Below, in pieces: positions 14,061-59,021 of a stretch of 64,000 nucleotides of DNA. The stretch lies in contig CAZBST010000007.1 in the NCBI GenBank assembly GCA_964494805.1, positions 44,493 through 108,492 on the forward strand. Reading direction: 5' to 3'. The notes beneath the pieces are model-generated. The model made no database searches. It was not told where the DNA came from and worked only from the letters and a program-made list of their open reading frames with translations. Origin of the DNA: an uncultured Pirellulales bacterium (GTDB taxonomy: Bacteria; Planctomycetota; Phycisphaerae; Sedimentisphaerales; Anaerobacaceae). A program made the position numbers and the translations under genes. The first letter of the stretch is position 1. Each line of letters begins with the position of its first letter.

Positions 14061-14201
14061 TTAGCCCCGCCAACACCTTGGCGGGGTTCGCAGTTTCGGT
14101 TAGCCCTGCCGCTTGCGGCAGGGGTTATTGTGCAGAGGGGACGGCAATCTCAAAAATTTTAGCCCCCTGCATCGCAGGGGATTACTTAGCTAACGACTAA
14201 T
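14061..14201 (+). repeat. GC-hairpin module (ttagcccc-hairpins plus GCGGCAATCTCAAAA core), copy A
   Basis: Contains the hairpins ccccgccaacaccttggcgggg, ccctgccgcttgcggcaggg and cccctgcatcgcagggg, plus gacggcaatctcaaaaatttt. A homologous module lies at 22719-22801. Confidence 0.75.
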
Positions 14202-14303
14202 TTGCTGTTGTGTCCTCCAGTTCGGCCCTCTTTTTTACTTACTCCGTCCTGCGGACTGCGTAATACACTGGTTCCTCATTGCGGCCTCCGGAAGCAACAG
14301 CAA
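14202..14303 (+). repeat. R1: 102-nt element with 9-bp terminal inverted repeats (TTGCTGTTG...CAACAGCAA), copy A
   Basis: ttgctgttgtgtcctccagttcggccc...tccgtcctgcggactgcgtaata...cattgcggcctccggaagcaacagcaa. Four copies occur in the window. Confidence 0.9.
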
Positions 14304-14312
14304 ACAAAATCT

Positions 14313-14337: not shown

Positions 14338-14440
14338 ATTCCTTTTCTTATCATCACCGCACTAGTTGCGGCGGAGGTTATGCCATAGCCAGACCGAGGC
14401 CGAGAAGTAAGAGCGTGGCTAATTCGGGGATAGGGGTGAT

Positions 14441-15355
14441 TTAAGATTCTCCATTTTCAAGCAAGTTGTCATAAAACTTTTTCCTTTCTTCTTTCTGTAT
14501 TTTTTTAGCCACATCTAAAGGAAATTGCTTCTCATAATATTCTTTTTCAGATTCCTTTTCAGATAAAGACTTGCTTTGAATTTTTTCGCCTAACCATTGA
14601 ATATCTTTGCCTTCTTCTCGATACTCAAATGCAGTTTTTTGTTGAATTATAAAAAAATGCATTTTTGAACTTAATTCTTTACGTAGGTACTTCCAATGCT
14701 TAGCAAAATGGTGGTCATTTGCACTAGATCCATATATTGTATCTTGTGTTGTGGGGTGATTATGTATGTGAAGTACCAATGAAGATTCACGCATCATACT
14801 TAATAATTTATATTGTTCTTCTTTTTCGGGTTCATAATACACTCTGTCAGGCAGTCCAATATATTTTGAGATATTATTACTTGCTATGCCTTTTGCTCGT
14901 AACCAAACAGGGTTTCTTTCGAAATCAGATGGGATAAGAACCCAAAAAGCTTCTTCAACACCTTGGAAACCAATTTTTTCACAAGCTTCAGTTAAAATCT
15001 CAACGATTTTTGTCTTGGAAACTTTTAACAATTCAGTATTGGCCTGATATTTATCAAATTGAGATGATATTGCTTCAATCTCGTCTCTGTCGCTTGGTTT
15101 CATTTGAACTAATAATTCTTTTTCATCTTTAGGAGTGGGATCAAGCTGTTGCATAAAGTATTTTGCAACAATTTTAATATCTTTATCACCCTCTATAAGC
15201 GCCCAATAAAGAAGTCTTTTTTGGTCATCGTTTGAAAGATTATTGAAGAAAATTTTGGACCTGCCTGGATCGCCATAACGGTATAGCGATTCAATTCCAT
15301 TTTTAAAAAGAAAGATTTTGTCTCGCAATTCGTCTGTGCTTAGCCTCTTGTCCAT
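14441..15355 (-). CDS. RadC-like JAB/MPN-domain protein with an unknown N-terminal extension
   Basis: 304 aa. EEAFWVLIPSD ... SSLVLHIHNHPTTQDTIYGSSANDHHFAKHW resembles the RadC/JAMM pattern (E..., HxH, S-x-x-D), but the His-to-Ser spacer is longer than canonical. The gene is strongly AT-rich. Confidence 0.55.
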   Translation of the reverse strand: MDKRLSTDELRDKIFLFKNGIESLYRYGDPGRSKIFFNNLSNDDQKRLLYWALIEGDKDIKIVAKYFMQQLDPTPKDEKELLVQMKPSDRDEIEAISSQFDKYQANTELLKVSKTKIVEILTEACEKIGFQGVEEAFWVLIPSDFERNPVWLRAKGIASNNISKYIGLPDRVYYEPEKEEQYKLLSMMRESSLVLHIHNHPTTQDTIYGSSANDHHFAKHWKYLRKELSSKMHFFIIQQKTAFEYREEGKDIQWLGEKIQSKSLSEKESEKEYYEKQFPLDVAKKIQKEERKKFYDNLLENGES

Positions 15356-15462
15356 TTTAATTTTTTACCATCCTATCCAGAAAGTTTTATCTCTTCTTTT
15401 AGTATAAGAATTTCCCATTGCTTCTTCAACACTCTTTAATTCGCCCTTGTTGGTTTCGATGG

Positions 15463-15837
15463 CTACTGTGTTTTGCGCCAGATCCAAATAGTAACAAGTA
15501 GAGAAATTACAGAGACCGCTACAGCGACTAAAGCCGAAAATGCTGAGAGCCATGTAGCTGATGCCATTTTTCTGGTATATTGATCAGTTCGCTTGTTTTG
15601 AATCCATTTCTGTATTTGCTCAAATGTTTGGGGATAAGTAAGCGGTATACAATGTATATCGGCGGAATGTTTAGGCAGACCTATAGACTCAGATAGTTTC
15701 AATAATTCCTGACCTTTCTGCTCTTTGGTATTTTTCTTATCTTTTACTATGTGAAGCAATTTCTGTTCGACTTCTTCTATTGTTGGCTCTGATGTCTTAC
15801 TGTTCTTATCCTGACATTCTGATTTTGCTTTGCACAT
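15463..15837 (-). CDS. Small C-terminally membrane-anchored protein, unknown function
   Basis: 124 aa with a charged Lys/Glu-rich N-terminal part and a C-terminal TM (WLSAFSALVAVAVSVISLLVTIWIW). AAGGAG lies 6 nt upstream of the ATG. AT-rich like the JAB gene just downstream. Confidence 0.55.
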   Translation of the reverse strand: MCKAKSECQDKNSKTSEPTIEEVEQKLLHIVKDKKNTKEQKGQELLKLSESIGLPKHSADIHCIPLTYPQTFEQIQKWIQNKRTDQYTRKMASATWLSAFSALVAVAVSVISLLVTIWIWRKTQ

Positions 15838-16099
15838 TAAATTCTCCTTATGGTTATTAAAGGTACTCTGGTTCAGTTTTTAACGGCCAACAATGCTTAT
15901 GCAGCCTGTTTTGGTAAATGCGAAAACCGTCTTTTCATTAGATAACATTATTGCCGATTAAAGTCAGAGAATAAATGGGAAATTGCGTTGAGGTTGCAAA
16001 AATCAATCAAAAGCGCAGCTACCCGCACACCAAAAACGGCTAATTTTAGATTTTTTTACTCCTTTTCTCACAATGAGTTACGAGAACCGAGTGACGAGA

Positions 16100-16150
16100 G
16101 ACGATAACCTTTTTCGCATCAAACGCGCAAGTCCATCCAATCATAGAGAG
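16100..16150 (+). repeat. R5 module, partial copy (ttttcgcatcaaACGCGCAAGTCCatccaat)
   Basis: Shares the core ttttcg..ca...cgcgcaagtcc.tc.aat with 25262-25296 and, inverted, 51645-51680. Confidence 0.6.
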
Positions 16151-16286
16151 ACGGTCTCTCTTTAAAGGAATCGCCAATGCCATCCGGCTAACTCAAATAA
16201 ACATTTATCAATAATCAATAATCGATAATCAATCGTCCGTCATAGCGATAGCGAAGATGGATACGAAGGTTGTTTGCGCGGAAGGG

Positions 16287-16433
16287 GAAAATCAATCAAA
16301 ATGAACAAAATTATGCAAAACGAACCCAATTTTAGAAATGCCAAAAATGACTGTAACTTTAGTAACAGCAATGACTACGAACTATGAACAACGAACTATG
16401 AACTCTTTAAAACAAACCCAATCAAACCCAAAT
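16287..16433 (+). repeat. R4 module (~145 nt; aaaatcaatcaaaatgaac...aaaacgaacccaatttt.gaaatgccaaaaatg...acaatgacta...)
   Basis: Aligns by eye with 25483-25600 (+) and with the reverse complement of 51282-51427. Confidence 0.8.
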
Positions 16434-16436
16434 AAT

Positions 16437-21655: not shown

Positions 21656-22561
21656 TTATCTTTCCCACGCCGGCTTTTCCGGCAAGCTCGCCCCGAATTC
21701 CATTACCAGCTTCTGCTCGTATCCGCCTGCGTATTGACCCTTGATAAACCTGTCGAACGCCTCCACGTAAAATCGCTTCCACGACTCCGTCTCTTTGCCC
21801 GGAACCACCGGAAAGAATAATGCGTTATTTGCCCTCGCCGCCTTCATATCGCCCGGTGCGTCGCCAATCATCAAAACGCACTCTTTCTCATATTTACCCT
21901 TAGTTGCATACTCAAGATGCTGCGCCTTTGTTCCCATTTCCTGTCCCGCTATTACATCGGTATACTTGGCGATGTCGTGTTCCTCCCACTCCCGCAAAAG
22001 AGCCTCACCGGGCGTAGCTGAAACAACAACTACATCAGCTAAAGGCCTGATTTTCTCCAGGCTCTCCCGCACGAACGGAAATGGCGGCACGCCCTTTACG
22101 ATGTCCGTAACTGCCTGGTTGACCTTTTTGCTCCAGTCCAGCACCTGCTCTAATTCTTTTTTCACCTGCAGGTCTTCCGTCTCCGCTATCGCCCTTTTAA
22201 GTCCATCATTGCTCAAAACGCTTTTCGGGTCGTCCACCCACGCGAAATAATATGGCAGTTGCGGCACCTCAAAACCTCTTTGCTTGACCATCGGATGGCA
22301 AGGCAGCAACTTTTCTAATATGAGTTTAAGTGTTTTATGCCGGTTGGCTCCTCGCGTCTTTGAAAAAAGGTCGGCAAAGTCCTTACACTCTCTCGCCGCC
22401 TGCGCGACCGGCTGCAGGCCGAAGCATCCTATCATCCACGGGCAGAAACATTCCCGATGCTTAATCCCCATCGTATCAAACGCGCACCCGTCCGAATCAA
22501 TCCCGACAAAGAATTTATTCCTCGGCTTAAATTCCTTCAATGCTTTCGCCGCATCTGTCAT
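21656..22561 (-). CDS. HAD-superfamily hydrolase
   Basis: 301 aa. FVGIDSDGCAFD is the DxDx(T/C) nucleophile motif; MIGDAPGDMKAA is HAD motif IV. Confidence 0.7.
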   Translation of the reverse strand: MTDAAKALKEFKPRNKFFVGIDSDGCAFDTMGIKHRECFCPWMIGCFGLQPVAQAARECKDFADLFSKTRGANRHKTLKLILEKLLPCHPMVKQRGFEVPQLPYYFAWVDDPKSVLSNDGLKRAIAETEDLQVKKELEQVLDWSKKVNQAVTDIVKGVPPFPFVRESLEKIRPLADVVVVSATPGEALLREWEEHDIAKYTDVIAGQEMGTKAQHLEYATKGKYEKECVLMIGDAPGDMKAARANNALFFPVVPGKETESWKRFYVEAFDRFIKGQYAGGYEQKLVMEFGASLPEKPAWER

Positions 22562-22566
22562 TTTCT

Positions 22567-22591
22567 GTCATTCCCGCGCAAGCGAGAATCC
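22567..22591 (+). repeat. R2 hairpin repeat (variant)
   Basis: gtcattcccgcgcaagcgagaatcc. On the minus strand it ends 5-6 nt before the HAD start codon. Confidence 0.8.
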
Positions 22592-22718
22592 AGTTGTTTT
22601 TTACCGCAGAAACCGCAAAATACGCAGAGATTGCTTTATATTTTTTCTCTGCGGTCTCAGCGTCCTCAGCGGTAAGACACCTTACAATTTTCCCCCGCTT
22701 TTATCAAGTCTTTTCGGG

Positions 22719-22801
22719 TTAGCCCCGGCACCTGTGCCGGGGGTCATTGCGAGCGCAGCGCGGCAATCTCAAAATGTTTAGCCCCGCAATTTATTGCGCG
22801 G
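22719..22801 (+). repeat. GC-hairpin module, copy B
   Basis: ttagccccggcacctgtgccggggg tcattgcgagcgcagcgcggcaatctcaaaatgtt tagccccgcaatttattgcgcgg. Same order as 14061-14201, directly preceding R1. Confidence 0.75.
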
Positions 22802-22903
22802 TTGCCGTTGTGTCCTCCAGTTCGGCTCTCTTTTTCATTTACTCCGTCCTGCGGACTGCGTAATACTAATGTTCCTCATTGCGGCTTCCGGAAACAACAG
22901 CAA
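22802..22903 (+). repeat. R1 102-nt TIR element, copy B
   Basis: About ten mismatches against copy A by eye. Left flank of the Panacea-HD cassette. Confidence 0.9.
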
Positions 22904-22972
22904 CTAGGGAGCTTTTATCTGCTCCAAAATACCTAAATTAATGAAGATTTTAAAAATAATAATATAAAAAGT

Positions 22973-23001
22973 ATTGATTGGTCGATAGAGCATGTATATC
23001 A
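22973..23001 (+). promoter_or_regulatory. Putative sigma70-type promoter of the cassette (TTGATT-17-TATCAT)
   Basis: ttgatt ggtcgatagagcatgta tatcat, about 50 nt upstream of ATG 23054 (GGAGAG RBS). Confidence 0.4.
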
Positions 23002-23053
23002 TATTAGAGTTAGTGGGTGAATTTTATCTTGGCGTCTAACCGGAGAGTGTGTC

Positions 23054-23548
23054 ATGGATAGGCAACAAATAAGCGTAAAGCTTACCATCGATGGTTTGAA
23101 GCTGCCATTCAAAATAGATAGCTTTGAAGACCGTCTGATATTGCAAAAAGCTGTTTATCTAGCACAAACAGCAGGAATAAATTTAGGCTACTACTATCAG
23201 TGGTATCTTTATGGCCCGTATTCTCCGTCCCTCACCCAAGACGAATATGCTATCGATATGGACATTTCAACAGGGCTGGATGAATCCAGAAAGTGGAAAC
23301 TGGACGACGCCTCGCGTAGACGATTAGGAGAAATACAAGCAATCTTTACGGAGCCCCAGAGAAACAAGCTCAGGAGGAAGCTGGAGTTGTTGGCATCAGT
23401 CCACTTCTTGATTGACCGCAAGCAAGTCCCCGGAGCAAATACTAAGCAGATCACTGAAACTTTGAAACGGTTCAACAAAGATTTCAGCGAGGAGGAAGTC
23501 AACGGGGCGTTGGGGGGGCTGAAAACTTATGGTCTCCTCCAAAGGTGA
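23054..23548 (+). CDS. Panacea/DUF4065 (SocA-like antitoxin domain)-like protein
   Basis: 164 aa. RLILQKAVYLAQTAGINLGYYYQWYLYGPYSPSLTQDEY fits the DUF4065 pattern as I recall it (KLQKLLY.aq ... W..GPv.p..Y). It overlaps the downstream gene by 20 nt. Confidence 0.5.
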   Translation: MDRQQISVKLTIDGLKLPFKIDSFEDRLILQKAVYLAQTAGINLGYYYQWYLYGPYSPSLTQDEYAIDMDISTGLDESRKWKLDDASRRRLGEIQAIFTEPQRNKLRRKLELLASVHFLIDRKQVPGANTKQITETLKRFNKDFSEEEVNGALGGLKTYGLLQR

Positions 23549-24935
23549 TGGCTTAGGAAAATCCATCGCTGATCCAATTCATGGCAATATACTGCTAAAA
23601 AAACGTGAAGTAAAAGTCATAGATACACCATCTTTTCAACGCCTGCGTCAACTTAAACAACTTGCAATGGCGCAATTGGTGTATCCATCTGCAACACTCA
23701 CTAGGTTTACTCACAGCATCGGTGCTTTGGGAACAATGATACGGATCATTCATGCTGCTAGGGATAATGGTATCGAATTTAAAGATGAAGACGAAGATAA
23801 TCTCCGACTTGCGGCACTTCTACACGGTATCGGACACTATCCATATTCCCACTTGATGGAAAGCGTAGACAGAGTCAACCTAATTGAGGAACAGGTTGAT
23901 GGAGCAACAATACCCACCAAAAAGGCACCGTATCCCGACCATGTAGAGGTCGGAACAATAATTGCTGCTGGTCAGGGCGACTTGATTAATGCTATTGGCG
24001 GAGAAAACAGGGCCAAAGCGGTGGCAGCTATTTTTGCACGAACAGAAGCAGCAGACCTACAATTGAGCAAACTTATTCATAGCAGCTTCGACATAGATAG
24101 ACTGGATTATTTACTACGAGACTCCTATGCTACCGGAGTCCCTTATGGACAAATAGATATTAATTACCTGCTAAATAATTTAAAAGTAAGTCCGCAACGG
24201 GTAGTCGGTTTTAAAGAAAAGGCATTAGCTGCGGTGGAACATTTTCTTTTGGCTCGATTTTTTATGTACCGCGTAGTCTATTACCACAAAACAATTTACG
24301 GAATGGAGGAGGTGTGTCGCCAATTACTAAGGCGTCTTAGGGATCGTGATGGAGAGAAATATGGCTTGCCCGCTGACGGAGAGGAAATCAAGAATTTGGT
24401 TAAATCACCAAAACTAACCACGTTCACCGATGCTTTTGTAGATAATATTATCCAAAAAGCTGTTAACGATGAAGAACCAATTGTCCGAACTCTAGCGAGA
24501 GCAATACAGAGCCGAAATCCTCCTAAGTTACTGAAGGAAGTTCCGGTGTGCGAAGAAGCAGCTAAAAGGTCCCACACTGGTAAAACTTTCATCCAAAATT
24601 GTAAGGAAAAATTGAAAGATTTAGCTAAGTCCTCTAAAATACCCCTTAAGCAATTTTTACTTTGCGAAATTATACTGCCTATAATCAAACAACCAAAAAA
24701 ATTCACTGCAACCGAAGTAGCTAAGCTTGGGCTGCAAGAAATCTATGAGATGGCATACGAAGAAGAAGGAGAAGATATCAAGATTTTTACTGCTGATAAG
24801 AAAGAACCAACATCGCTGATGAAAACAGAACACAGTTTGGTAGTTAAATATTGCAAGTTATTCACTTCAAATCTTTCGTCTTTATGTAGTTTACGAAAGC
24901 GAGGACAGGGAAGGCATTGTTGCGAAATTGCGTAA
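23529..24935 (+). CDS. SAMHD1/dNTP-triphosphohydrolase-like HD-domain protein with a degenerate HD dyad (HG)
   Basis: 468 aa with IADPIHGNI..., FQRLRQLKQL, YPSATLTRFTHSIGA, LAALLHGIGHYPYSH (canonical LLHDIGHGPFSH) and FDIDRLDYLLRDSYATGV. The C-terminal roughly 200 aa have no motif I recognise. Confidence 0.7.
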   Translation: MVSSKGDGLGKSIADPIHGNILLKKREVKVIDTPSFQRLRQLKQLAMAQLVYPSATLTRFTHSIGALGTMIRIIHAARDNGIEFKDEDEDNLRLAALLHGIGHYPYSHLMESVDRVNLIEEQVDGATIPTKKAPYPDHVEVGTIIAAGQGDLINAIGGENRAKAVAAIFARTEAADLQLSKLIHSSFDIDRLDYLLRDSYATGVPYGQIDINYLLNNLKVSPQRVVGFKEKALAAVEHFLLARFFMYRVVYYHKTIYGMEEVCRQLLRRLRDRDGEKYGLPADGEEIKNLVKSPKLTTFTDAFVDNIIQKAVNDEEPIVRTLARAIQSRNPPKLLKEVPVCEEAAKRSHTGKTFIQNCKEKLKDLAKSSKIPLKQFLLCEIILPIIKQPKKFTATEVAKLGLQEIYEMAYEEEGEDIKIFTADKKEPTSLMKTEHSLVVKYCKLFTSNLSSLCSLRKRGQGRHCCEIA

Positions 24936-24974
24936 AAAGGTTAAAGACTGGGATAAAGCTTAATCTTTCTCGAT

Positions 24975-25076
24975 TTGCTGTTGTGTCCTACAGTTCGGCC
25001 ATCTTTTTTATTTACTTCGCCCTGCGGACTGCGTAATACTAACGTTCCTCATTGCGGCCTCTGGAAACAACAGCAA
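24975..25076 (+). repeat. R1 102-nt TIR element, copy C
   Basis: Same orientation as copy B. Starts 12 nt after the end of an alternative-frame tail of the HD gene. Confidence 0.9.
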
Positions 25077-25085
25077 AATAAAATT

Positions 25086-25110
25086 GTCATTCCTATGAAA
25101 GCAGGAATCC
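25086..25110 (+). repeat. R2 hairpin repeat (variant)
   Basis: gtcattcctatgaaagcaggaatcc, 9 nt after R1 copy C. The spacing matches locus A. Confidence 0.8.
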
Positions 25111-25145
25111 AGTTTGAAAAGCCCCCGCGGCAATTGAGCGGGGTA

Positions 25146-25296
25146 AAATCAATCATTTGCGCAGGGGGTTAAACCCCCTAAAATCCATTTTTTCGAAAAT
25201 TTTTTATCCCTTTATCTATAACGACTTAGCCAAAATCGCACCTCTGAAAATTCCAGAATTTTCGACAAATTCGCGCAAGTCCGTCAAATTATAGAA
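25146..25296 (+). repeat. R5 module (~150 nt)
   Basis: aaaatcaatca...aaaatccattttttcgaaaattttttatccctttatctataacgacttagccaaaatcgcacctctgaaaa...ttttcgacaaattcgcgcaagtccgtcaaatt aligns with the reverse complement of 51645-51795. Confidence 0.8.
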
Positions 25297-25482
25297 GGGA
25301 CGAATTCTGTCCCAAATCGCCCAGCAGGGCGATGGTCTTGGGGCCGGCAGGCCCGGGTCAGAAACGACTTAGCTGTTTTTAATCTTGTAGTGGAGTTTAG
25401 CCGTTTGTAAGACCAACGGAAACCCCATCGGAGACTCTCTATCAACAATGAACTGTAAAAGAGTTAAAACGGTTAACCGTTC

Positions 25483-25600
25483 AAAACAAACCCAATTTTA
25501 GAAAAACCAAAAATGCTTATAAGTGTATTAATTACAATGACTAATAACAAAAATGAACGTTCAACCAACTTTGAAAAACGAACCCAAACAAAGCCAATTT
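25483..25600 (+). repeat. R4 module
   Basis: aaaacaaacccaattttagaaaaaccaaaaatgcttataagtgtattaattacaatgactaataac...aaaaacgaacccaaac. Confidence 0.8.
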
Positions 25601-25623
25601 ATGGTGAGCCTGTCGAATCCATT

Positions 25624-27426
25624 TCAATCTTTGCTGGTTACATAGATTACCTGCTCAGCGAACAAATTCGGTGCGAATCGCACCGGACTCAACCTCGCCT
25701 TGCTCAAGGCAATCCTGTCTTCCACCTTTACGCCGAGCTTATCACAAAACCGGTCGAAATCCTTCAGCGACAAAAAATGTATGTTCGGCGAATTGTGCCA
25801 TTCGAACGGCAGCCGTTTGGTTACGGGCGCCTTGCCGGCAAGCATCATCTGCGCTCTGCACCGCCAATGCGCAAAGTTGGGGAAGCTGACAATCACCTTC
25901 TTACCGACCCGAAGCAGCTCTTTGAAAACCTTCTCCGGCTCCTTTACCGTCTGCAGCGTCTGCGACAGGATTATATAATCGAAACTCTTGTCGCCGTAAA
26001 ACCGCAGTCCCTCTTCGACATCCTGCTGAATAATCGGCAGATGCCGGCAGATACAGTCCAGCACAAGCTCCTGGTCAATTTCGATGCCGCTGCCCTTTGT
26101 GTTCTTGTCGCGCACGAGATTAACAAGCAGTTGGCCGTCGCCGCAGCCGACGTCAAGCACGGAACTATCCGGCTCAATGAGAGATTCTATCAGCTCATAA
26201 TCCACGCGTGCCCTGTGCGCCTGCTTAAACTCGTCGAGCTTTCGCATACTCCGCGCGTAACACGAACAAGTCTGCTGCTCGTCCCCCGGCCTGAAAGTGG
26301 CCTGCAAAAAGCAGCAAAGGAACCTCCCCAACACTTCCGGCTCCAGCAGGAACGCATCGTGGCCGTATGGCGAAGCAATATCACAGTAACTGACGTCCTT
26401 ATCCACGGCGGCGAGCGCGTCTACCATCACCTTCGATTGAGCCGGCGTAAAGAGCCAGTCGCTTGCGAAACTGATTATCAGGAACCGCGAATTCGTTTTT
26501 GCAAAGGCCTTTTCCAGCGAGCCGTATTTTCTCTGAAGGTCGAAATAATCCGCCGCCTTGGTTATATAAAGGTAGCTGTTGGCGTCGAACCTTTCCACGA
26601 AGCTCTGCCCCTGATAGTCCAGATATGTCTCGACCGCAAACTCACTATTGAAATCGTAACTGTATTTCTCGGCCCCGCGCAGCTGGCGCCCGAACTTCGC
26701 GCGCATACCCGGCTCCGACAGGTACGTTATATGACCAATCATTCTCGCAATGGCAAGACCTCTATCCGGCCCGACGCCGTCGTGATACTTCCCGCCGACA
26801 AAATTGGAATCCGCCAGTATCGCATTTCGGCCTACCGCATCGAATGCTATCGACTGCGCGCTCAGGTGCGTCGTCGTCGCAACCGCTATCGCCGATTTGA
26901 CAAAATCAGGATATGCAATCGCCCACTGCAGAACCTGCATCCCTCCAATCGAGCCGCCGATTACGCTCAACAGCTTTTTTATTCCGAGCTTGTCCAACAG
27001 CAGCTTTTGCACCTTCACCATATCCGCAATAGTTATAATCGGAAAATCCAGCCCATATGGCTTGCCCGTTTCCGGATTAATCGAGCCTGGCCCCGTCGTC
27101 CCGCTGCACCCGCCGAGAAAGTTCGAGCAAATAACAAAATACTTGTTCGTATCGATGCCCTTGCCGGGACCTACCATAACGTCCCACCAGCCGGGTTTTC
27201 TGTCCTCGGGACTGTTCAAGCCTGCAACGTGAGCGTTGCCGCTCAAAGCGTGGCAAATCAAAACAGCGTTATCCCCCGCCTCGTTGAGCCTGCCGTACGT
27301 CTCGTAGGCCACGTCAATCGGGCCTAATCGCTTGCCGCTCTCTAACTCGAGCGGCTTATCCCGCTCGACGACGCGCATTGTCTCCGTCTTGACAATACCG
27401 ACCGAATTTCCCCTTGTTTCTGCCAT
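25624..27426 (-). CDS. metX: Fused homoserine O-acetyltransferase MetX plus MetW domain
   Basis: The N-terminal roughly 380 aa are MetX-like (LESGKRL.PIDVAYETYGRLN...NAVLICHALSGNAHVAG, GGSIGGMQ). The C-terminal roughly 200 aa are MetW-like (VLDVGCGDGQLL...FDYIILSQTLQTVKEPEKV...SFPNFAHWRCR). Likely start is ATG 27426 (MAETRGN). Confidence 0.85.
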   Translation of the reverse strand: MAETRGNSVGIVKTETMRVVERDKPLELESGKRLGPIDVAYETYGRLNEAGDNAVLICHALSGNAHVAGLNSPEDRKPGWWDVMVGPGKGIDTNKYFVICSNFLGGCSGTTGPGSINPETGKPYGLDFPIITIADMVKVQKLLLDKLGIKKLLSVIGGSIGGMQVLQWAIAYPDFVKSAIAVATTTHLSAQSIAFDAVGRNAILADSNFVGGKYHDGVGPDRGLAIARMIGHITYLSEPGMRAKFGRQLRGAEKYSYDFNSEFAVETYLDYQGQSFVERFDANSYLYITKAADYFDLQRKYGSLEKAFAKTNSRFLIISFASDWLFTPAQSKVMVDALAAVDKDVSYCDIASPYGHDAFLLEPEVLGRFLCCFLQATFRPGDEQQTCSCYARSMRKLDEFKQAHRARVDYELIESLIEPDSSVLDVGCGDGQLLVNLVRDKNTKGSGIEIDQELVLDCICRHLPIIQQDVEEGLRFYGDKSFDYIILSQTLQTVKEPEKVFKELLRVGKKVIVSFPNFAHWRCRAQMMLAGKAPVTKRLPFEWHNSPNIHFLSLKDFDRFCDKLGVKVEDRIALSKARLSPVRFAPNLFAEQVIYVTSKD

Positions 27427-27523
27427 AGCACGTTTAAGTATATACGAAAACTTCCCGCTGTAAAGCACAACAGCAACCCGGCAGGAGTGATGATATTTTC
27501 TGCATCGAAATCGCTAAAAACAC

Positions 27524-50306: not shown

Positions 50307-51281
50307 ATGAACCCGGGAAAAGATAAACCCTTAGCACAGCTTACATGGCTTATCCCTATCGCATTAATAGCCGTGGCCTTGCTCATAGTCCTTGTCGACA
50401 TATTTCTTCCTGGAAGCAGGATATTATATTTCGCATGGCTCCTTATTGCTCTAGCGCTTTTGGCGGTAGTTTCTTTGATACTCTTAAAAACATTTAAAAT
50501 TCTCAACTCACTTACGGAAAACGACACGAAGCTCGAAAAAATAGCCGAGACACTGGAAAAGAGCCGCTCTGTTTTGACACAAATCAACCAAAACACCCGC
50601 CTCAGCGAAGCAGCAAAAGCGGTTGCATTCCGCGATGCAGACATACAGTCCCTCAGGGAGGCCGTTTTTGATAAGCTCCAGCAGCAGGATTTCGATGCCG
50701 CCTACGAAGTGATTGATGAAATCGCCCTCCATATTGAGTATAAAAACCTGGCTGAGCAGCTACGGACTCAGGCAAACAATTACCGCGATGCAACCGACAC
50801 CGAAAGGGTAAATCAGGTCATATCGCATATCGAAAAGCTCTTTGAAAGCTCTCAGTGGGCCAAAGCCAGCGCCCAGATTGAAAGGTTAATCAGAGACTTT
50901 CCCAAATCCGAAAATGCAAAAGCAATGCGGCAGAAACTGCTCGATAAAAAAGAAGAGCGGAAAAAAATATTGCTCAACGCCTGGGATGATGCCATAAAAC
51001 GTCAGGCCACCGACCGAAGCCTGGAGATTCTAAGGGAGCTGGACCTCTACCTTACTCCAAATGAAGGGTTGGCTTTACAGGAAGCTGCAAAGGACGTTTT
51101 CAGAAACAAGCTGCACAACCTCGGCGTCCAATTCTCTCTGGCTGTATCCGGAAAACAATGGGCAAAAGCGATTGAGGCCGGCGAGCAGATTATTCACGAC
51201 TTCCCAAACAGCAAAATGGCCGAGGAAATTCACGAAAAGTGGGACATCCTGAGGCAGAAAGCCGAGCAGAGAGACAATTAA
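50307..51281 (+). CDS. Membrane protein with two N-terminal TM segments and a helical repeat (TPR-like) C-terminal domain
   Basis: Starts at MNPGKDKPLAQLTWLIPIALIAVALLIVLV. A second TM (FAWLLIALALLAVVSLILL) is followed by a long helical region. Confidence 0.55.
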   Translation: MNPGKDKPLAQLTWLIPIALIAVALLIVLVDIFLPGSRILYFAWLLIALALLAVVSLILLKTFKILNSLTENDTKLEKIAETLEKSRSVLTQINQNTRLSEAAKAVAFRDADIQSLREAVFDKLQQQDFDAAYEVIDEIALHIEYKNLAEQLRTQANNYRDATDTERVNQVISHIEKLFESSQWAKASAQIERLIRDFPKSENAKAMRQKLLDKKEERKKILLNAWDDAIKRQATDRSLEILRELDLYLTPNEGLALQEAAKDVFRNKLHNLGVQFSLAVSGKQWAKAIEAGEQIIHDFPNSKMAEEIHEKWDILRQKAEQRDN

Positions 51282-51427
51282 AATTGGGTTCGTTTGGGTT
51301 CGTTTTTGAGCTTGGCCGTTTTAAGTTTTTGGTTATTAGTCATTGTAATTACTACATTTACAAGCATTTTTGGCATTTCGAAAATTGGGTTCGTTTTGCA
51401 TTTTTTTGTTCATTTTGATTGATTTTT
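51282..51427 (-). repeat. R4 module, inverted copy
   Basis: The reverse complement reads aaaatcaatcaaaatgaacaaaaaaatgcaaaacgaacccaattttcgaaatgccaaaaatgcttgtaaatgtagtaattacaatgactaataacc... Confidence 0.8.
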
Positions 51428-51644
51428 CCTTCCAGCGCAGAAAATCTCCGTATCAACCGCAGAGGGCGCAGAGAACGCAGAGGAACAAGTTATAAATGGT
51501 ATTAGCTGTTTATCCGTAACCGCTCATTGGTAATTCCTTTAAAAAACTATCCCCCGCTACTTCGCTTCGGCGAAGTAAGACGACGGGGGCGACCCCCTTT
51601 AGAGTAAACGGCACTCTATACAAAGGGGCAGGCGAAGTGTCGTC

Positions 51645-51795
51645 TACAATTGGAGGGACTTGCGCGATTGATGCGAAAATTGTGGGGTTTTCAGAGGTGT
51701 GGTTTTGGCTAAGTCGTTATAGTTAAAGGGATAAAAAAATTTTGAAAAAATGGGTTTTAGGTATGGGGGTATCTGCGCTTTTGATTGAAGTTTAA
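51645..51795 (-). repeat. R5 module, inverted copy
   Basis: The reverse complement aligns with 25146-25296 (…cattttttcaaaatttttttatccctttaactataacgacttagccaaaaccacacctctgaaaa…ttttcgcatcaatcgcgcaagtccctccaatt). Confidence 0.8.
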
Positions 51796-51836
51796 CCGCT
51801 GAGAACGCAAAGAGCGCAGTGATTTTTAGATCTAAG

Positions 51837-51938
51837 TTGCTGTTGTTTCCGTAAGCCGCAATGAGGAACATCAGTATTACGCAGTCCGCAGGACGAAGTA
51901 AATAGGAAAGATGGCCGAACTGGAGGACACAACAGCAA
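51837..51938 (-). repeat. R1 102-nt TIR element, copy D (inverted)
   Basis: ttgctgttgtttccgtaagccgcaatgaggaac...cgcagtccgcaggacgaagtaaat...ggccgaactggaggacacaacagcaa is the reverse complement of the R1 consensus. Confidence 0.9.
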
Positions 51939-52027: not shown

Positions 52028-55000
52028 TTATAACTGGGCGTTCAATTCTTCTAACCAATCCTGCAGCGTTTCTGCAAATTCCTGCCAGGCCTGTTCGCCC
52101 TGTTCTTCAATCATCATTTCTTTAAGTTGCTCATCGGAGAGCAGCTCCTGGAGACACTCTATGTTATTGTTTATCTCTTCTTCATCAATCTCTTCTTCGA
52201 TTTGTTCCGCCTGGGGTTGCGGTTGGGGTTCTGGTTGTAGCTCAGGTTCAGGTTGCGGCGGCTCAGGCGCAGATTGTTCAGGAGGTTGAGATTCAGGCTC
52301 GGGCTGTAGTTCGATTTGCGGTTGTTGAGGTGATGATGCGTAAAAGGCTCCGCCGAAGCCATCGCCCATTGACGTTTCTTCGCCTAACTGCAGGAGCCAA
52401 TAATCACAGAAGCGAGCGAGGTCGTCCATATCGATTATATCATTGTGGGGGACTGAGATATCGCAGACGGGATTGTAGTCCGGCTGTTCTGAGCTTGTCA
52501 GCCAGGCCTGGGCGAAAACTGCAAAGTCATAAAAGTCAACGACGCAGTCCGGCTTAAAGTCGCCTACCGGATAGCATCCAGGAAAACACCTCATCCCTAA
52601 ATACAGCCGAATATCCTCAAAGAACACGGTGCCATCGCTTTCAGCCGGCGTACCGTCGCCGAAACCGATAATAATTTTCTTAACATCGGCCAGATTTACG
52701 TCATTATCATCAACGAAATCCTGCAGGACAATATTCCACTGGTGCCATTCTTCCTCTGTTATGTCGCTCATATAGGGATATTCCACTTTCCCGGTAGCGT
52801 CTTCGCCATCGGTTAGTTTCACATACATCTGCTGGTTGGCGTCATTGGTTGCTATGCCATAGAACCACAGCGACAATACTTTAGCGCCCATATCAAGCCA
52901 ATTCGGGTCTTTTCCAAGGTCGTCCAGCTGCGCGGTATTAACATCTGCTCTGGCCTCAGAATAGTATGGCCCATACGAATAATTCAAGAAATTATACCTC
53001 ATCGAATATCCACTGCGGCTCGGCCCCGACACATTAGAAACTATCGCGCAGGTGTAGGGGAGGTCCTGGGTCCAATAATCCTTCCATGTATCCCTCAGCC
53101 TATCAGGGTAAAAGGCACCATACGTCTTATTAAAATTGTCTATGAGATAGCAATCCGTCGTAAAGCCCCATACACTACCTCTCCATACGTTAGAGTCGTT
53201 GACTTCGTCGATACGCCAATAGTAAGTTGTCCCTAATTCAATTTTATTGGCCTCGATTGGATAAGAGGGATTGGAAACCGGGCCTTTATAAACTTCGCCG
53301 AGCGGCCAGGAGTTATTGGCATCGTTGACATCGTTGAAATTGGTGCCGAAGTAGATTTCGTGGCCATTAAGAGCGGCAGCAAAATATCCCGAGCACCAGG
53401 TGAGGTTGAGGTTAGGTTCGCCAGTGCATAAAAAATCAGATAATTCCCCGCAGGTCGGGTTGGGGTTACTTGCGCAGAGGACAGGTGTATGTTCACGAGT
53501 CCAGCGGGAATAATTACCGCCACTGATTTTGCATAAATTTGTGATTGAACCATAAGACGGGATGCAATCATTTACTTTTGCCGTTAACGTAACAGAATTC
53601 GATTCATTCGGTTCCAATGTGCCGATGTTCCAGGTAACGGTGTGAGTGCTGGGGTGATAAACACTATTTGGGCCGGAGGCGGAGATAAAGGCGAGGTCAT
53701 CAGGCAATAAATCAGTAATTACAACATCGTTGATGGTACCTATATAGTTAGGGTCGCCAACAGGCGGATTGAGGTAACTGATGGTATAATTTACATCATT
53801 GCCGGGGAGGACACCATTGGCGTCAGCGATATTATCAACCTTATTCAGAGATAGACCTAATGCGTTGGCAATGGCGAGAGCGTTGAAAAGATTTAGTCGG
53901 CCTCCTGTAACGCAAAGACCATTCAAAGCAGATTTTTGGTCAACAGAATTGAGAATAATATCTTTTACATTAAGATGAATCAGAGTTGGATTAATCGACC
54001 AGACAAGTGCAGCGGCCCCTGCAACAAACGGGGTAGACATTGATGTCCCGTCCTTATAATTGTATTGTCCGTATACCGCGCAGCTTAAGATATTCGACCC
54101 AGGCGCAGCCAAATCAACAGAAGTAAGACCCCAGTTTGAGCTTCCCGAGGCCCATATCGACCGCACATCATTAGAATCAGAAGCCATTACCGAGATGATG
54201 TTGCTGCAATCAAAACGGGCTGGATAAGATGGATATGAGTAACCATCGTTCCCTGCAGCCGCTATGAATAAGACACCCATCGCATTAGCGACATCAATGG
54301 CATCCTTCAACTCCTGGTCATATTCATAGCTACCCCACGAGTTGCTCAGGACCTTTGCTCCTTTATCAATAGCATATTCAATACAGGAGATGGCATTTGC
54401 TGTCGAACCCCCTTCACCCAAATCGTTTAGAAACTTCAAGGCCATTATCTTTACATTCCAGCAGACGCCCGTAACGCCCTGAGAATTGTTGCCCACAGCA
54501 CCTATTATTCCTGCGCAATGAGTGCCGTGCCCATTGTCATCCATCGGGTCACTGTCATTGTTATAGAAATCATACCCGAAACTACCATTGGAGTCTGTCC
54601 ACATATTGGCTGACAAGTCTGGATGGGTGTAATCAACGCCGGAGTCGATAACAGCCACGATAATGTTACTATCTCTTGTGATATACCAAGCCTCGGGCGC
54701 ATCAATATCGGCATCCGGCGTTCCGCCGGTCTGGCCTGTGTTGTGCAGTCCCCATTGGTCGCCGCCGTTAGGAACAGGACCGCAGGGGTCGTTGGGGAAG
54801 GTCGAGAAAGCATGATAGATGTAATTCGGCTGAATATGGATAATATCTGATGAGGTACCGAAAGTTGCTAAGGCAGATTCTACAGATATTCCTTGAGGTA
54901 ATTTAACCAAGCTTAATTCCGGAACGAGCTTGTAACTTCGAACTATGGAGCCGCCGCCCAAAGATGAAAGAATTTCTGCCTTCTCTCCTGCACTGCGTTG

Positions 55001-55147
55001 CTCCCCATTATCTTTTAACTTGAAGCGCACAAGTACCTCACTGGGAACATAGTTCGGCTCGATAGCTGAACCGGCAGATGATATGAATAAAAAAGAAGAT
55101 GTAATTACCATGATGATTATATTTCTGGACATGGGGTGATTCTCCAT
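52028..55147 (-). CDS. Secreted multidomain subtilisin-like serine protease (S8) with I9 propeptide, dockerin-like repeats and an acidic P/E/Q-rich tail
   Basis: 1039 aa with a signal peptide. Catalytic triad motifs are VAVIDSGVDYTHPDL, HGTHCAGIIGA and GTSMSTPFVAGAAAL. Also a TYYWRIDEV...WGFTT module. GDFKPDCVVDFYDFAVFAQAWL and DIIDMDDLARFCDYWL look dockerin/EF-hand-like. The tail reads QPQIELQPEPESQPPEQSAPEPPQPEPELQPEPQPQPQ. Start could be Met at 55132. Confidence 0.85.
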   Translation of the reverse strand: MENHPMSRNIIIMVITSSFLFISSAGSAIEPNYVPSEVLVRFKLKDNGEQRSAGEKAEILSSLGGGSIVRSYKLVPELSLVKLPQGISVESALATFGTSSDIIHIQPNYIYHAFSTFPNDPCGPVPNGGDQWGLHNTGQTGGTPDADIDAPEAWYITRDSNIIVAVIDSGVDYTHPDLSANMWTDSNGSFGYDFYNNDSDPMDDNGHGTHCAGIIGAVGNNSQGVTGVCWNVKIMALKFLNDLGEGGSTANAISCIEYAIDKGAKVLSNSWGSYEYDQELKDAIDVANAMGVLFIAAAGNDGYSYPSYPARFDCSNIISVMASDSNDVRSIWASGSSNWGLTSVDLAAPGSNILSCAVYGQYNYKDGTSMSTPFVAGAAALVWSINPTLIHLNVKDIILNSVDQKSALNGLCVTGGRLNLFNALAIANALGLSLNKVDNIADANGVLPGNDVNYTISYLNPPVGDPNYIGTINDVVITDLLPDDLAFISASGPNSVYHPSTHTVTWNIGTLEPNESNSVTLTAKVNDCIPSYGSITNLCKISGGNYSRWTREHTPVLCASNPNPTCGELSDFLCTGEPNLNLTWCSGYFAAALNGHEIYFGTNFNDVNDANNSWPLGEVYKGPVSNPSYPIEANKIELGTTYYWRIDEVNDSNVWRGSVWGFTTDCYLIDNFNKTYGAFYPDRLRDTWKDYWTQDLPYTCAIVSNVSGPSRSGYSMRYNFLNYSYGPYYSEARADVNTAQLDDLGKDPNWLDMGAKVLSLWFYGIATNDANQQMYVKLTDGEDATGKVEYPYMSDITEEEWHQWNIVLQDFVDDNDVNLADVKKIIIGFGDGTPAESDGTVFFEDIRLYLGMRCFPGCYPVGDFKPDCVVDFYDFAVFAQAWLTSSEQPDYNPVCDISVPHNDIIDMDDLARFCDYWLLQLGEETSMGDGFGGAFYASSPQQPQIELQPEPESQPPEQSAPEPPQPEPELQPEPQPQPQAEQIEEEIDEEEINNNIECLQELLSDEQLKEMMIEEQGEQAWQEFAETLQDWLEELNAQL

Positions 55148-55194
55148 AAAAGAATATTCCCTTATTCCAACGTGACCGGTCCCGAGTGCACGGG

Positions 55195-55782
55195 TTAACC
55201 TATGCGGCTATGACTTTTGCGCCGAATAATCTGCGTAAATCCAGAGACAAGTAATATAAAAGTAGCTGGCTCAGGGATGACCGTCCCTTCGACAATCAAT
55301 GTCGCATCATTCAGCACAACAGAACCGTAATCAATATAGTGCCATCCACCTGTACCAACGAATGAGATATGGCTAATCCTAATATTGCCTTGGCCGTCAA
55401 GAAGGTCCGACCAACTGGATGTTGGTGAAAGCGAGAATTGTGAAATTCTGTCAAAAATCTCTGGTTCTGGATCAGTTTCGGCCCCGCCCCATATTTCTGT
55501 AAGTCGAGGCCATGGATTAGAACCCAAGGATGCACGGATTCCTACATCCAGAGGAAACGGGTTGCAGGGGTCGGTGTCATATACCGCCAGACCAGCGGTG
55601 ATTCCACCCGACCAGTCGATATAAACGTGCGATATTTCACTAAAAGTAACTCCGAGGTTGAAATCTGCTTGCCAATATGAATTGAAACCATACGTTCCCG
55701 CACAGTTCAAGGGCAGTTCGACGGTATCGCCCAAAGCTACTCCCGCCATTGCAAGTATTATCGCAATAATCGCATATTTCAT
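55195..55782 (-). CDS. PEP-CTERM sorting-signal protein P1
   Basis: 195 aa with a signal peptide. C-terminus VIPEPATFILLVSGFTQIIRRKSHSRIG: PEP motif, then TM, then a basic tail. Confidence 0.8.
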   Translation of the reverse strand: MKYAIIAIILAMAGVALGDTVELPLNCAGTYGFNSYWQADFNLGVTFSEISHVYIDWSGGITAGLAVYDTDPCNPFPLDVGIRASLGSNPWPRLTEIWGGAETDPEPEIFDRISQFSLSPTSSWSDLLDGQGNIRISHISFVGTGGWHYIDYGSVVLNDATLIVEGTVIPEPATFILLVSGFTQIIRRKSHSRIG

Positions 55783-55914
55783 TTTTGCCTCCTCAACTTA
55801 CGCTTTTAACCTTTACATTATTATACCACATTTTGACCTCCCAAAACAACTAAAAATCAAGATAAAGGCCTCATTTTCCACTATTAAGATGCAGAAAAGG
55901 GGGGAAGTGTTCCC
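55776..55914 (-). repeat. Promoter/leader repeat L1, copy 1 (upstream of P1)
   Basis: About 139 nt, nearly identical to 57242-57380. The minus strand contains TGgTATAAT and GAGGAGG 5 nt before the ATG. Confidence 0.85.
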
Positions 55915-56006
55915 TTAACTTTCTTGAATTATAAAAAGGTTGCCAGAAATGAGGGAGTTTTTGAGGCCTTTCATGTTATTATCTGGTGATTAGAGGCAGT
56001 ACTTTC

Positions 56007-56035
56007 TTGACATTTTCATGTCAATCAAATAAAAT
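56007..56035 (+). promoter_or_regulatory. 18-bp palindrome TTGACATTTTCATGTCAA overlapping a TTGACA-17-TAAAAT promoter for P2
   Basis: ttgaca ttttcatgtcaatcaaa taaaat. The palindrome spans 56007-56024 and recurs at 58784-58801. Confidence 0.5.
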
Positions 56036-56108
56036 ATTTTGTGAGTAGTTTTTTGGTATGCCCCACTCGTTGAGGAAGCGGTTATTTCGTAGTATAAGGG
56101 AGGCAGGC

Positions 56109-56564
56109 ATGAAACGATTATTGCCAATAGCTATTATTATGATAATAATATTTTGCCCTCTGAAAACAGCGAAGGGAATTCTGATAGAAGATGTACATAC
56201 GGATCCGATCGAACCAAAAGATGTAGACATCATTACGATAGTTGTTTCCGGGATAGGTGGAACTCCAACTTGGATAGATGATTCTGATTTTCGAATAGAA
56301 GATACCTCTCTCGAACTCGATATCTTTTTAAGGTTTGGCCCTTACGGAGCGATATCACCATGGTCTCATTCAGAGATAATCGGGACGCTGCCTGCGAATT
56401 ACTATGACCTTGCCGTAAGTGCATATGTTTATAATGATTTAACCGAGATATATGAGTTTAGAGAAACATATTCAACCGGATTCACCGTTGTTCCGGAACC
56501 GGCGACATTGCTGCTATTGACTATGGGAGCGGTTTGGATTCGAGCAGGAAAACGCAGAACGTAA
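56109..56564 (+). CDS. PEP-CTERM sorting-signal protein P2 (paralog of P4)
   Basis: ATG 56109 with GGGAGG upstream, and a signal peptide. C-terminus FTVVPEPATLLLLTMGAVWIRAGKRRT. Confidence 0.8.
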   Translation: MKRLLPIAIIMIIIFCPLKTAKGILIEDVHTDPIEPKDVDIITIVVSGIGGTPTWIDDSDFRIEDTSLELDIFLRFGPYGAISPWSHSEIIGTLPANYYDLAVSAYVYNDLTEIYEFRETYSTGFTVVPEPATLLLLTMGAVWIRAGKRRT

Positions 56565-56651
56565 CATCAAAAAATGGCGGCTGTCCCCATAGAAGAAATT
56601 TAAAAATCAATCCGTCTTTGCTGTGCTACGCCGAGACGCTGCGCGAATGCA

Positions 56652-56685
56652 AAAATAAAAATTGCGGAGCCGCTTCGCGGGGATT
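56652..56685 (-). repeat. R6 short hairpin repeat, inverted copy
   Basis: aaaataaaaattgcggagccgcttcgcggggatt, close to the reverse complement of 16437-16470. Lies between the convergent stops of P2 and P3. Confidence 0.7.
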
Positions 56686-56696
56686 TTTAGAAGTGA

Positions 56697-57248: not shown

Positions 57249-57380
57249 TTTTGCCTCCTCAACTTACGCTTTTAACCTTTACATTATTATACCACATTTC
57301 GACCTCCCAAAACAGCTAAAAATCAAGATAAAGGCCTCATTTTCCACTATTAAGATGCAGGAAAAGGGGAAACTGTTCCG
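57242..57380 (-). repeat. Promoter/leader repeat L1, copy 2 (upstream of P3)
   Basis: Differs from copy 1 at only a handful of positions (for example tttTgacc/tttCgacc and acaActaa/acaGctaa). Confidence 0.85.
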
Positions 57381-57405
57381 TAAATTCAATCAAAATTCTT
57401 AAAAA

Positions 57406-57996: not shown

Positions 57997-58045
57997 AAAA
58001 TGACCCTCCTTGAGATAAGGTTAAATTTATTCTGGTTTTGCTTAA

Positions 58046-58986: not shown

Positions 58987-59021
58987 GCCATCACTCCCTC
59001 GATAGTTAATTGATGTTCGAA

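Follow-up and report, generated by a model that had tools for sequence, protein, structure and literature searches.

A free-standing homologue of the DarG C-terminal domain encoded before a SAMHD1-type HD protein or a deaminase: a candidate nucleotide-depletion defence module in Planctomycetota

Deoxynucleoside triphosphate (dNTP) hydrolases (dNTPases) and dCTP deaminases have an established role as effectors against phage (bioRxiv 10.1101/2021.04.26.441389). Two answers have so far been given to how such self-toxic enzymes are restrained: in the anti-phage system Clover the dNTPase CloA is held back by its partner, the nucleotidyltransferase CloB (PMC12265719), and the deaminase AvcD is controlled by the small RNA (sRNA) AvcI. 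In DarTG, according to the title of the paper on structure 7YK3, the C-terminal domain of DarG keeps DarT inhibited (PMC12170906). The paper on the antitoxin domain Panacea refers to DarG solely by way of analogy, and neither HD proteins nor deaminases are among the partners it lists. Here we analyse 64,000 nt of contig CAZBST010000007.1 of an uncultured Pirellulales bacterium (GCA_964494805.1); this whole stretch is called the window, and coordinates are window positions, read 5' to 3'. It contains a pair of overlapping genes, a small gene (gene 1) related to the DarG C-terminal domain and a larger gene (gene 2) for a SAMHD1-type HD protein. With moderate confidence, we propose that the pair represents a toxin-antitoxin-like nucleotide-depletion defence module with interchangeable effectors.

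The promoter, leader, gene 1 and gene 2 are supported as a self-contained, translationally coupled two-gene unit, with the following features:

22950 to 23002, plus strand: promoter and putative operator, made up of an A-rich UP-like tract, the -35 hexamer, a conserved spacer and the -10 hexamer
23003 to 23053, plus strand: leader of about 50 nt, conserved in an alignment of nine relatives, with the Shine-Dalgarno sequence GGAGAG at 23043-23048
23054 to 23548, plus strand: gene 1, 164 amino acids (aa), a DarG C-terminal (DarT-binding) domain homologue with the JGI family label 'YwgA'; putative restraining or sensing partner
23529 to 24935, plus strand: gene 2, open reading frame (ORF) of 468 aa, a SAMHD1/EF1143-family HD protein and putative dNTP triphosphohydrolase; frame-corrected end at 24963 (about 477 aa)
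23826 to 23828, plus strand: Gly100 codon GGT, giving LLHGIGH where LLHD[IV]GH is usual, at the Asp position of the HD metal-binding dyad
24850 to 24853, plus strand: 1-nt insertion (T at 24852), a frameshift of the last approximately 36 gene 2 codons

An earlier note, drawn up from this DNA alone, had described an overlapping unit of 164 and 468 aa with a 20-nt overlap, and these coordinates were confirmed; the overlap of the two reading frames is retained in close relatives. The note was aware of no description of such a pair; that it had never been described is not supported, as the pair is very common and close gene 1 homologues already carry a COG-style name in the JGI label 'uncharacterized protein YwgA', although our literature search on 'YwgA' and 'YwfO' found no functional study. 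A 54-sequence alignment of gene 1 was too divergent to seed a pattern scan, and a closer 15-sequence alignment seeded the search for related loci (designated below by L numbers). In the gene-neighbourhood search that the note had proposed, the HD gene lay directly after gene 1 in 63 of 70 GTDB species loci; for the full set of fetched loci the count was about 142 of 172. No third conserved gene was found beside the pair. The arrangement is that of a type II toxin-antitoxin system, a conserved, co-transcribed gene for a small protein together with a larger enzyme gene. The pair occurs in Planctomycetota (Sedimentisphaerales, Planctomycetaceae and Gemmataceae), Verrucomicrobiota, Riflebacteria, Anaerolineales and Terriglobia, and on a phage contig, where a thymidylate synthase gene lies upstream and genes for a ParB-methyltransferase and a small terminase subunit lie downstream.

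By sequence and predicted fold, the product of gene 1 is homologous to the C-terminal domain with which DarG binds DarT, and it exists as a separate protein. The protein matches the PADLOC model of DarG over the C-terminal third of DarG (expect value (E) 3.4e-9) and the NCBIfam DarG model NF048014 at 8.3e-9 over model positions 184-320 of 338, with 35 bits against a cutoff of 250 bits. Alignment by hhalign with Streptomyces DarG, which consists of the macrodomain and the C-terminal domain, gave a probability of 97.8%, and 7yk3_B was the sole PDB match of the gene 1 family profile (4e-5). The AlphaFold2 (AF2) model of gene 1, with a predicted local distance difference test (pLDDT) score of 97.2, had one credible PDB neighbour by Foldseek, chains B and D of 7yk3, that is, the DarG C-terminal domain (probability 1.00, template modelling (TM) score 0.63). 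Both share the motifs (L/I)QK..YL.Q..G..LG, GPYS and ELLASVHFL. The analysis thereby places the DarT-binding domain of DarG in a broader, free-standing family. The window gene 1 deviates from conserved residues at three positions (V42I, A107R and E155G).

The earlier note had assigned gene 1 to Panacea, and the motif that it relied on, LQKAVYLAQ...WYLYGPYSP, is present. The Pfam comparison returned no match for gene 1 from any model, including PF13274 (SocA_Panacea) at E<1, and none of 54 diverse family members matched PF13274 at E<0.1. Two Bacillus homologues, P0391 and P0392, scored 14.6 and 17.8 bits, below the 25.7 cutoff, and UniRef labels one Bacillus relative DUF4065, so that a distant superfamily link is possible on sequence grounds; membership is not established. 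A fold search of BFVD with the gene 1 model found no credible match and no phage Panacea-type protein, and no Panacea-like structure emerged from either the PDB or the BFVD search.

The partner of gene 1 is not always an HD protein. Three metagenome contigs with common flanking genes, in which gene 1 is 72-78% identical to that of the window, each carry a different effector directly after it:

L002: HD gene, 489 aa
L089: 441-aa P-loop kinase and cytidine deaminase, a match to the PADLOC anti-phage 'dCTPase' model at E 3.9e-87
L088: 390-aa dCTP deaminase of the domain order DCD_N/DCD/DCD_C, followed by a protein matching PDC-M11B

Downstream, L002 and L089 have der, cstA and DAC in common, and L088 has der too. 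Upstream, all three contigs encode DUF2178 and helix-turn-helix (HTH) proteins, with a cellulase gene in L088 and L089 and a bPH_2 gene in L002 and L089. The gene after the DCD deaminase, at L088 8808-9845, matches the PADLOC candidate defence protein PDC-M11B at 1.4e-24 and gives a weak match to DUF365.

A partner of the PADLOC dCTPase family follows gene 1 at L089, L100, L108 and L133. We identified six distinct gene 1 sequences partnered with a kinase-deaminase, and their nearest neighbours are HD-partnered copies at 78-89% identity; only the copies of L128 and L132 depart from this, being 99% identical and each other's nearest neighbour. As deaminase-partnered copies are thus mostly nearest to HD-partnered ones, the effector swaps are polyphyletic by sequence comparison. 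The deaminase loci also keep about 35-40 nt of the 5' end of the HD gene after the gene 1 stop, and, judging from this relic, the HD effector is ancestral and has been replaced repeatedly. One conserved small protein before three unrelated dNTP-depleting enzymes makes gene 1 a candidate regulator and amounts to a built-in comparative experiment.

Gene 2 matches the Pfam families PF01966 (HD; 26.1 bits, cutoff 22) and PF19276 (HD_assoc_2; 30.6 bits, cutoff 23.1), and its sequence relatives in the PDB are Aq_1910 (2hek, 2e-32), BT4208 (2q14), EF1143 (2o6i) and SAMHD1. For the closest intact homologue, AF2 gave a model (pLDDT 81.6) that Foldseek aligned over the full length with fungal and human SAMHD1 as well as with EF1143 and BT4208 (E of about 1e-16, TM scores of 0.62-0.77); the SAMHD1/EF1143 fold of HD domain plus HD-associated region is thus present throughout. 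We also considered a Dgt-type anti-phage dGTPase and rejected it: the defence dGTPase models align with residues 29-111 only and at low score (PADLOC 21 bits; NCBIfam NF003701 13 bits against a cutoff of 383), and gene 2 is instead of the SAMHD1/EF1143 type (COG1078-like).

A toxin-antitoxin or abortive-infection module, which the earlier note had also suggested, remains the best fit, mainly because close gene 1 homologues precede an anti-phage dCTP deaminase family or a DCD deaminase and because gene 1 is homologous to a DarG domain. A protein of the gene 2 type would hydrolyse dNTPs and thereby starve phage DNA replication, as its homology to SAMHD1/EF1143 and its interchangeability with dCTP deaminases suggest. 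In uninfected cells the small gene 1 protein would restrain the enzyme, through direct binding, through repression at the conserved operator, or both; its DarG-domain homology and its upstream, overlapping position point to such restraint, and perhaps to sensing. Infection, or loss of the gene 1 protein, would then release dNTP depletion. The promoter and gene 1 may thus act as a platform with an exchangeable effector, into which sister loci have swapped an AvcD/Tal-type dCTP deaminase or a DCD enzyme. In the window genome the effector is probably inactive, as set out below. If correct, the proposal offers a testable function hypothesis for the widespread, unstudied 'YwgA' proteins.

The earlier note correctly placed gene 2 in the SAMHD1 family, and missed that the ORF is frameshifted and that its HD motif reads HG. 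All 119 closest homologues and 140 of the 141 gene-1-linked HD genes have the Asp of the HD dyad, whereas the window copy has Gly. This change, D100G, is the sole departure among 140 conserved columns 5' of the frameshift, and it leaves the window copy with an incomplete H...HD...D metal-binding set (G100); H62, H99, H103, H108 and the DxDRxDY segment are intact in the translation. We take the equivalent SAMHD1 residue to be D207, and H206R/D207N crystal forms of SAMHD1 are among the PDB matches. The extra T at 24852 shifts the conserved C-terminus (ASYSLQIFRLYVVYESEDREGIVAKLRKKVKDWDKA, then stop) to the +1 frame, which ends at 24963 and matches the C-termini of the homologues; these are 478-490 aa long and cover only about 94% of the 468-aa ORF. 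The segment lost by the frameshift is a confident beta-strand and terminal helix in the homologue model (pLDDT 90-96). An independent Logan assembly of SRR14802572 gives the identical 468-aa product, which makes an artefact of a single assembler an unlikely cause of the frameshift. A further change in the window, GAG GAG to GGG GGG, turns the GGAGG ribosome-binding site of gene 2, 12 nt upstream of its start (23513-23517), into GGGGG. Given D100G, the C-terminal frameshift and the loss of GGAGG, the window enzyme is probably inactive and its effector function lost, making this copy a poor choice for experiments.

The HD gene beside gene 1 is also disrupted in L012, L034, L060, L063, L073 and L139, whether by frameshifts, by an internal stop codon or by the loss of about 140 aa, and in L063 gene 1 itself is 5'-truncated or frameshifted. 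These disruptions could be recurrent effector decay or assembly error in metagenome-assembled genomes (MAGs). Recurrent disruption of the HD gene beside gene 1 fits a costly effector.

Several observations weigh against an immune module in which gene 1 restrains its partner. Its main difficulty, for a simple binding model, is that gene 1 has no partner-specific residues: we found no residue or alignment column of gene 1 that tracks partner type, and gene 1 keeps 82-89% identity across partners of three unrelated folds, which is awkward for a fold-specific stoichiometric inhibitor. Direct binding of the two products is a step that we infer. A tblastn search with gene 1 gave no matches in 50,697 phage (INPHARED) and 72,556 plasmid (PLSDB) records, and PADLOC v2 does not model the pair, which leaves no earlier defence-island statistic to draw on. 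Many copies of the pair have housekeeping neighbours. In the window these are gnd, pfkB, a HAD hydrolase gene, metXW and a class I (Trp/Tyr-type) tRNA synthetase gene, and the L176 pair adjoins mdh and rplU/rpmA. The pair also appears to be old rather than freshly acquired, because a close relative keeps it beside metXW. We know of no indication that the Bacillus subtilis ywfO-ywgA locus is toxic or defensive.

Some of these points favour housekeeping control of dNTP pools, in which the HD enzyme is a cellular dNTPase for balance or sanitation, regulated by the YwgA-like protein either as a subunit or at the level of transcription, and neither has a role in immunity or toxin-antitoxin behaviour. 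We regard this as the main rival, though an unlikely one. Core genes neighbour the pair in L175/L176 as they do in the window, and in the close relative L087, where metXW is 88% identical at the protein level, the pair is kept on the side of metXW where it lies in the window, with two more genes intervening and other genes upstream. The window neighbour genes do not recur beside the pair in any of the 70 genome loci, and only L087, found later, shares metXW. The identity of gene 1 drops roughly with taxonomic distance, from 60-74% in Sedimentisphaerales-type MAGs to about 50% in Planctomycetaceae and about 40% in Gemmataceae and Verrucomicrobiota. The usual role of DCD enzymes is metabolic, and YwfO has been the subject of published speculation as a nucleotide-sanitising enzyme (PMC4993169). 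A pool-control role, however, does not sit well with replacement of the dNTPase by an AvcD/Tal-type kinase-deaminase, a family for which a role in phage defence is the only one shown (bioRxiv 10.1101/2021.04.26.441389), with the homology of gene 1 to an antitoxin domain, or with gene 1 relatives that precede KAP/STAND NTPases at prophage ends. Nor would it lead one to expect that one genome carries the pair twice, or that copies turn up in mobile and phage surroundings. GCA_039810545.1 (L081/L176) has two divergent gene 1-HD pairs, one of them in a mobile setting with IS1595 and Bro-N/BstA_C and the second beside the housekeeping genes mdh and rplU/rpmA; a Sedimentisphaerales MAG likewise has two (L026/L063). 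The guanine plus cytosine (GC) content of the pair is consistently below that of its flanks (0.42 against 0.50-0.51 in the window, and lower in 13 of 13 other loci), which fits an accessory origin with long residence. Finally, D100G and the frameshift indicate that the enzyme is dispensable in the window genome.

The defence module reading leaves open a role for gene 1 in transcription, and the upstream region bears on it. The -35 hexamer TTGATT (22974-22979) and the -10 hexamer TATCAT (22997-23002) are separated by 17 nt, within which the segment GGTCGATAGA at 22980-22989 is conserved. The promoter that the earlier note had read from these hexamers is present and conserved, although the match to consensus alone would not have identified it: it reaches only 9/12, and the region has no excess of matches of this grade (8, with 5.2 +/- 1.8 in shuffles). 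The 16-nt motif TTGATTGGYCGAYRRA, which is the -35 hexamer and the next 10 nt, occurs once per locus, about 80 nt 5' of the gene 1 start, in 43 related loci, including loci with a deaminase effector. In relatives it is flanked by an A-rich tract upstream and TATYAT downstream, and about 110 nt 5' of gene 1 are conserved. Since the -35/spacer motif is conserved in 43 loci, the promoter is real by the measure of sequence conservation; signals of co-transcription indicate that gene 1 and gene 2 are transcribed together from it. Conservation of the spacer beyond what a promoter needs suggests a putative operator beside the promoter.

Gene 1 might therefore be a DNA-binding autorepressor only, setting effector expression and never touching the enzyme, with TTGATTGGTCGATAGA as the candidate operator for its product. 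We retain this possibility because gene 1 lacks partner-specific residues, and judge it distinctly unlikely. The 16-nt element is present irrespective of effector, gene 1 does not covary with partner type, and a few family members give weak matches to HTH-type Pfam models. The only structural relative of gene 1, however, is the DarG C-terminal domain, a protein-binding module, and Foldseek returned no HTH or winged-helix match for the gene 1 model. The more distant gene 1-HD pairs keep the gene pair without the motif, which is unmatched in 133 of 176 loci, and the conserved reading-frame overlap suggests stoichiometric co-production of the two proteins.

The module lies between two copies of a dispersed repeat, R1, and further repeats follow:

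22802 to 22905, plus strand: R1 copy B, a 104-nt dispersed intergenic repeat that flanks the module and lies outside it
24975 to 25078, plus strand: R1 copy C, beginning 12 nt past the frame-corrected gene 2 stop
25177 to 25602, plus strand: R2 (25177-25300) and R3 (25482-25602), further dispersed intergenic repeat blocks

R1 is 104 nt long with terminal inverted repeats of 10-14 bp (TTGCYGTTGT...ACAACAGCAA). The window holds four copies, 86-91% alike, at 14201-14304 (+), 22802-22905 (+), 24975-25078 (+) and 51835-51938 (-), and a 19-nt core occurs four times against 0.01 expected. In fold prediction, R1 pairs chiefly along its terminal inverted repeat, and the z-scores (-1.2 to -3.3) are weak. 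We considered an integron attC site and rejected it, as inspection by eye found no R''/R' core sites, copies 2-27 kb apart and one copy inverted. Rfam searches returned nothing over the whole window at gathering thresholds or over 22500-25700 at E<=1, so that R1, R2 and R3 are not known RNAs; no tRNA or transfer-messenger RNA genes were found.

Copies B and C do flank the unit in the same orientation, as the earlier note had it; its further proposal, that the pair is cargo moved or inserted between R1 elements, found no support, and we hold it to be very improbable. Direct copies abut the module, about 45 nt upstream and 12 nt downstream, the cassette is lower in GC than its flanks, the R1 copy at 14201-14304 adjoins an island of 33-38% GC with two orphan ORFs, and the short-read contig L001 breaks exactly at both R1 copies. 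Against this, none of the 171 other loci, about 140 of which carry the pair, contains the R1 core, and the nearest relative, L087, has its pair beside metXW without R1; the same repeats were not found to flank cargo elsewhere, and the R1 copy at 51835-51938 has no cargo. No transposase or integrase was identified adjacent to the module in a scan that covered part of the window ORFs. By our own estimate, adjacency of two of the four copies over about 35 usable intergenic gaps has a chance probability of about 30%, or about 15% for the same orientation, and the bracketing of the pair by R1 is not beyond chance. We conclude that R1, R2 and R3 are dispersed intergenic repeats resembling miniature inverted-repeat transposable elements (MITEs) or repetitive extragenic palindromic (REP) sequences, which have colonised gaps round the module and are not its vehicle; R1, a genome-specific repeat, is incidental to the pair.

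The R2 and R3 blocks are about 120 nt each and both begin AAAATCAATCAAAA. They recur in the window at 51281-51761 (-) and 16003-16436 (+), and occur in related metagenome contigs (L087 6381-6828, L002 6670-7274, and L015, L123, L014 and L054). R1 is accompanied by REP-like, GC-rich short palindromes, GTCATTCC...GGAATCC and GTCATTGCGAGCG...GCAATC, at 22560-22600, 22740-22775 and 25085-25120. The island at 14400-16000, with a GC content of 0.33-0.38 where nearby DNA has about 0.49, has R1 copy A (14201-14304) on one side and the R2/R3-like blocks at 16003-16436 on the other. Its two minus-strand ORFs, 14441 to 15355 (304 aa) and 15463 to 15837 (124 aa), had no Pfam or PADLOC match, and it is probably a second case of foreign DNA by these repeats.

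Elsewhere in the window, 54598-60350 holds a run of small minus-strand ORFs (164-196 aa), essentially unrelated in sequence and mostly with N-termini that look like signal peptides by eye. Repeated segments lie between them, of 157-159 nt at 54598/57471 and 55760/57226 and of 84 nt at 58585/59647 (92% identical). The metX and metW genes are fused, in the window and in L087, to encode one 614-aa protein (25624 to 27468, minus strand, in the window); a 604-aa ORF antisense to the fusion (25513 to 27327, plus strand) is almost certainly spurious.

The more distant relatives of gene 1 have further partners or, by fusion, form part of DarG. In Bacillus, Brevibacillus and a Bacillales MAG, the homologue precedes an 838-851-aa KAP/STAND NTPase gene and stands directly after prophage lysis genes; the Bacillus homologues inspected have KAP NTPase partners and never HD proteins. 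At these loci (L078-L080, L084-L086 and L173-L174; Bacillus subtilis, Brevibacillus and the Bacillales MAG) the homologue lies 40-50 nt upstream of the KAP/STAND-type gene, past prophage holin and amidase genes and among genes for an LXG toxin or an Mrr-like nuclease, and the two look like a candidate defence pair in their own right. One HD-partnered homologue lies beside IS1595 and BstA-like genes. At L152 274-2585 (also L021 and L151) a homologue 62% identical to gene 1 is followed 10 nt later by a gene for an HTH_3 and Peptidase_M78 protein resembling RmrA or CapP, and then by an overlapping 163-aa ORF that is DUF4411/PIN-like by eye; the arrangement could represent either a variant of three genes or a pair of toxin-antitoxin-like modules side by side. 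Tentatively, and with more doubt than we attach to the module itself, we suggest that the YwgA/DarG-C-terminal-domain family could be a fold-independent control module for nucleotide-depleting immune effectors (dNTPase, AvcD-type and DCD, with KAP/STAND in Firmicutes). If true, such systems would form a new two-gene defence family, and the long-orphan ywgA-ywfO pair of the B. subtilis type would gain a function.

A DarG-C-terminal-domain-like protein together with a SAMHD1-type or deaminase effector is a combination seen in none of DarTG, PanA/Panacea, the dGTPase/dCTP deaminase/AvcID systems or Clover. Like DarTG, the unit has the sequence motifs and fold of the DarG C-terminal domain, encoded beside an enzyme that would arrest growth by way of DNA or its precursors. 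Unlike DarTG, it lacks the N-terminal macrodomain and an adjacent DarT (DUF4433), the neighbour being an HD protein; gene 1 is free-standing and upstream of its partner, which is a dNTPase or deaminase rather than an ADP-ribosyltransferase. A true DarT-like/DarG pair was found only at a distant Streptomyces locus, L075, where the ORFs were identified by reading their sequences. PanA/Panacea (DUF4065, PF13274) resembles gene 1 in being a small antitoxin-like domain beside many unrelated partner enzymes and in the motif LQK..Y..Q ... GP, whereas gene 1 and 54 family members fail its Pfam model and there is no structural match in BFVD.

The SAMHD1, EF1143, BT4208 and Aq_1910 proteins share with gene 2 a full-length fold match and the HD and HD_assoc_2 domains; in contrast to them, the window copy has Gly for the metal-binding Asp and a frameshifted C-terminus, and it has an obligate small upstream partner. 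The name YwgA presumably comes from the B. subtilis gene next to ywfO, an HD phosphohydrolase gene, an adjacency implied by the systematic names; neither ywfO nor ywgA has an established function. Clover, too, is an operon of two genes, one of which limits the self-toxicity of an HD dNTPase by restraining it, as gene 1 may do. CloB, however, makes the inhibitory nucleotide p3diT, whereas gene 1 has no nucleotidyltransferase motifs or fold. Assignment of the pair to Clover was rejected, as the Pol-beta-type nucleotidyltransferase partner was not found by Pfam, PADLOC, NCBIfam or fold comparison. With the dGTPase and dCTP deaminase of Tal et al. and with AvcD of AvcID the module shares its effector logic, the destruction of dNTPs, and a dCTP deaminase is an actual alternative partner of gene 1. 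Those systems consist of a single gene or of a gene and the sRNA antitoxin AvcI, whereas here a conserved protein precedes the effector.

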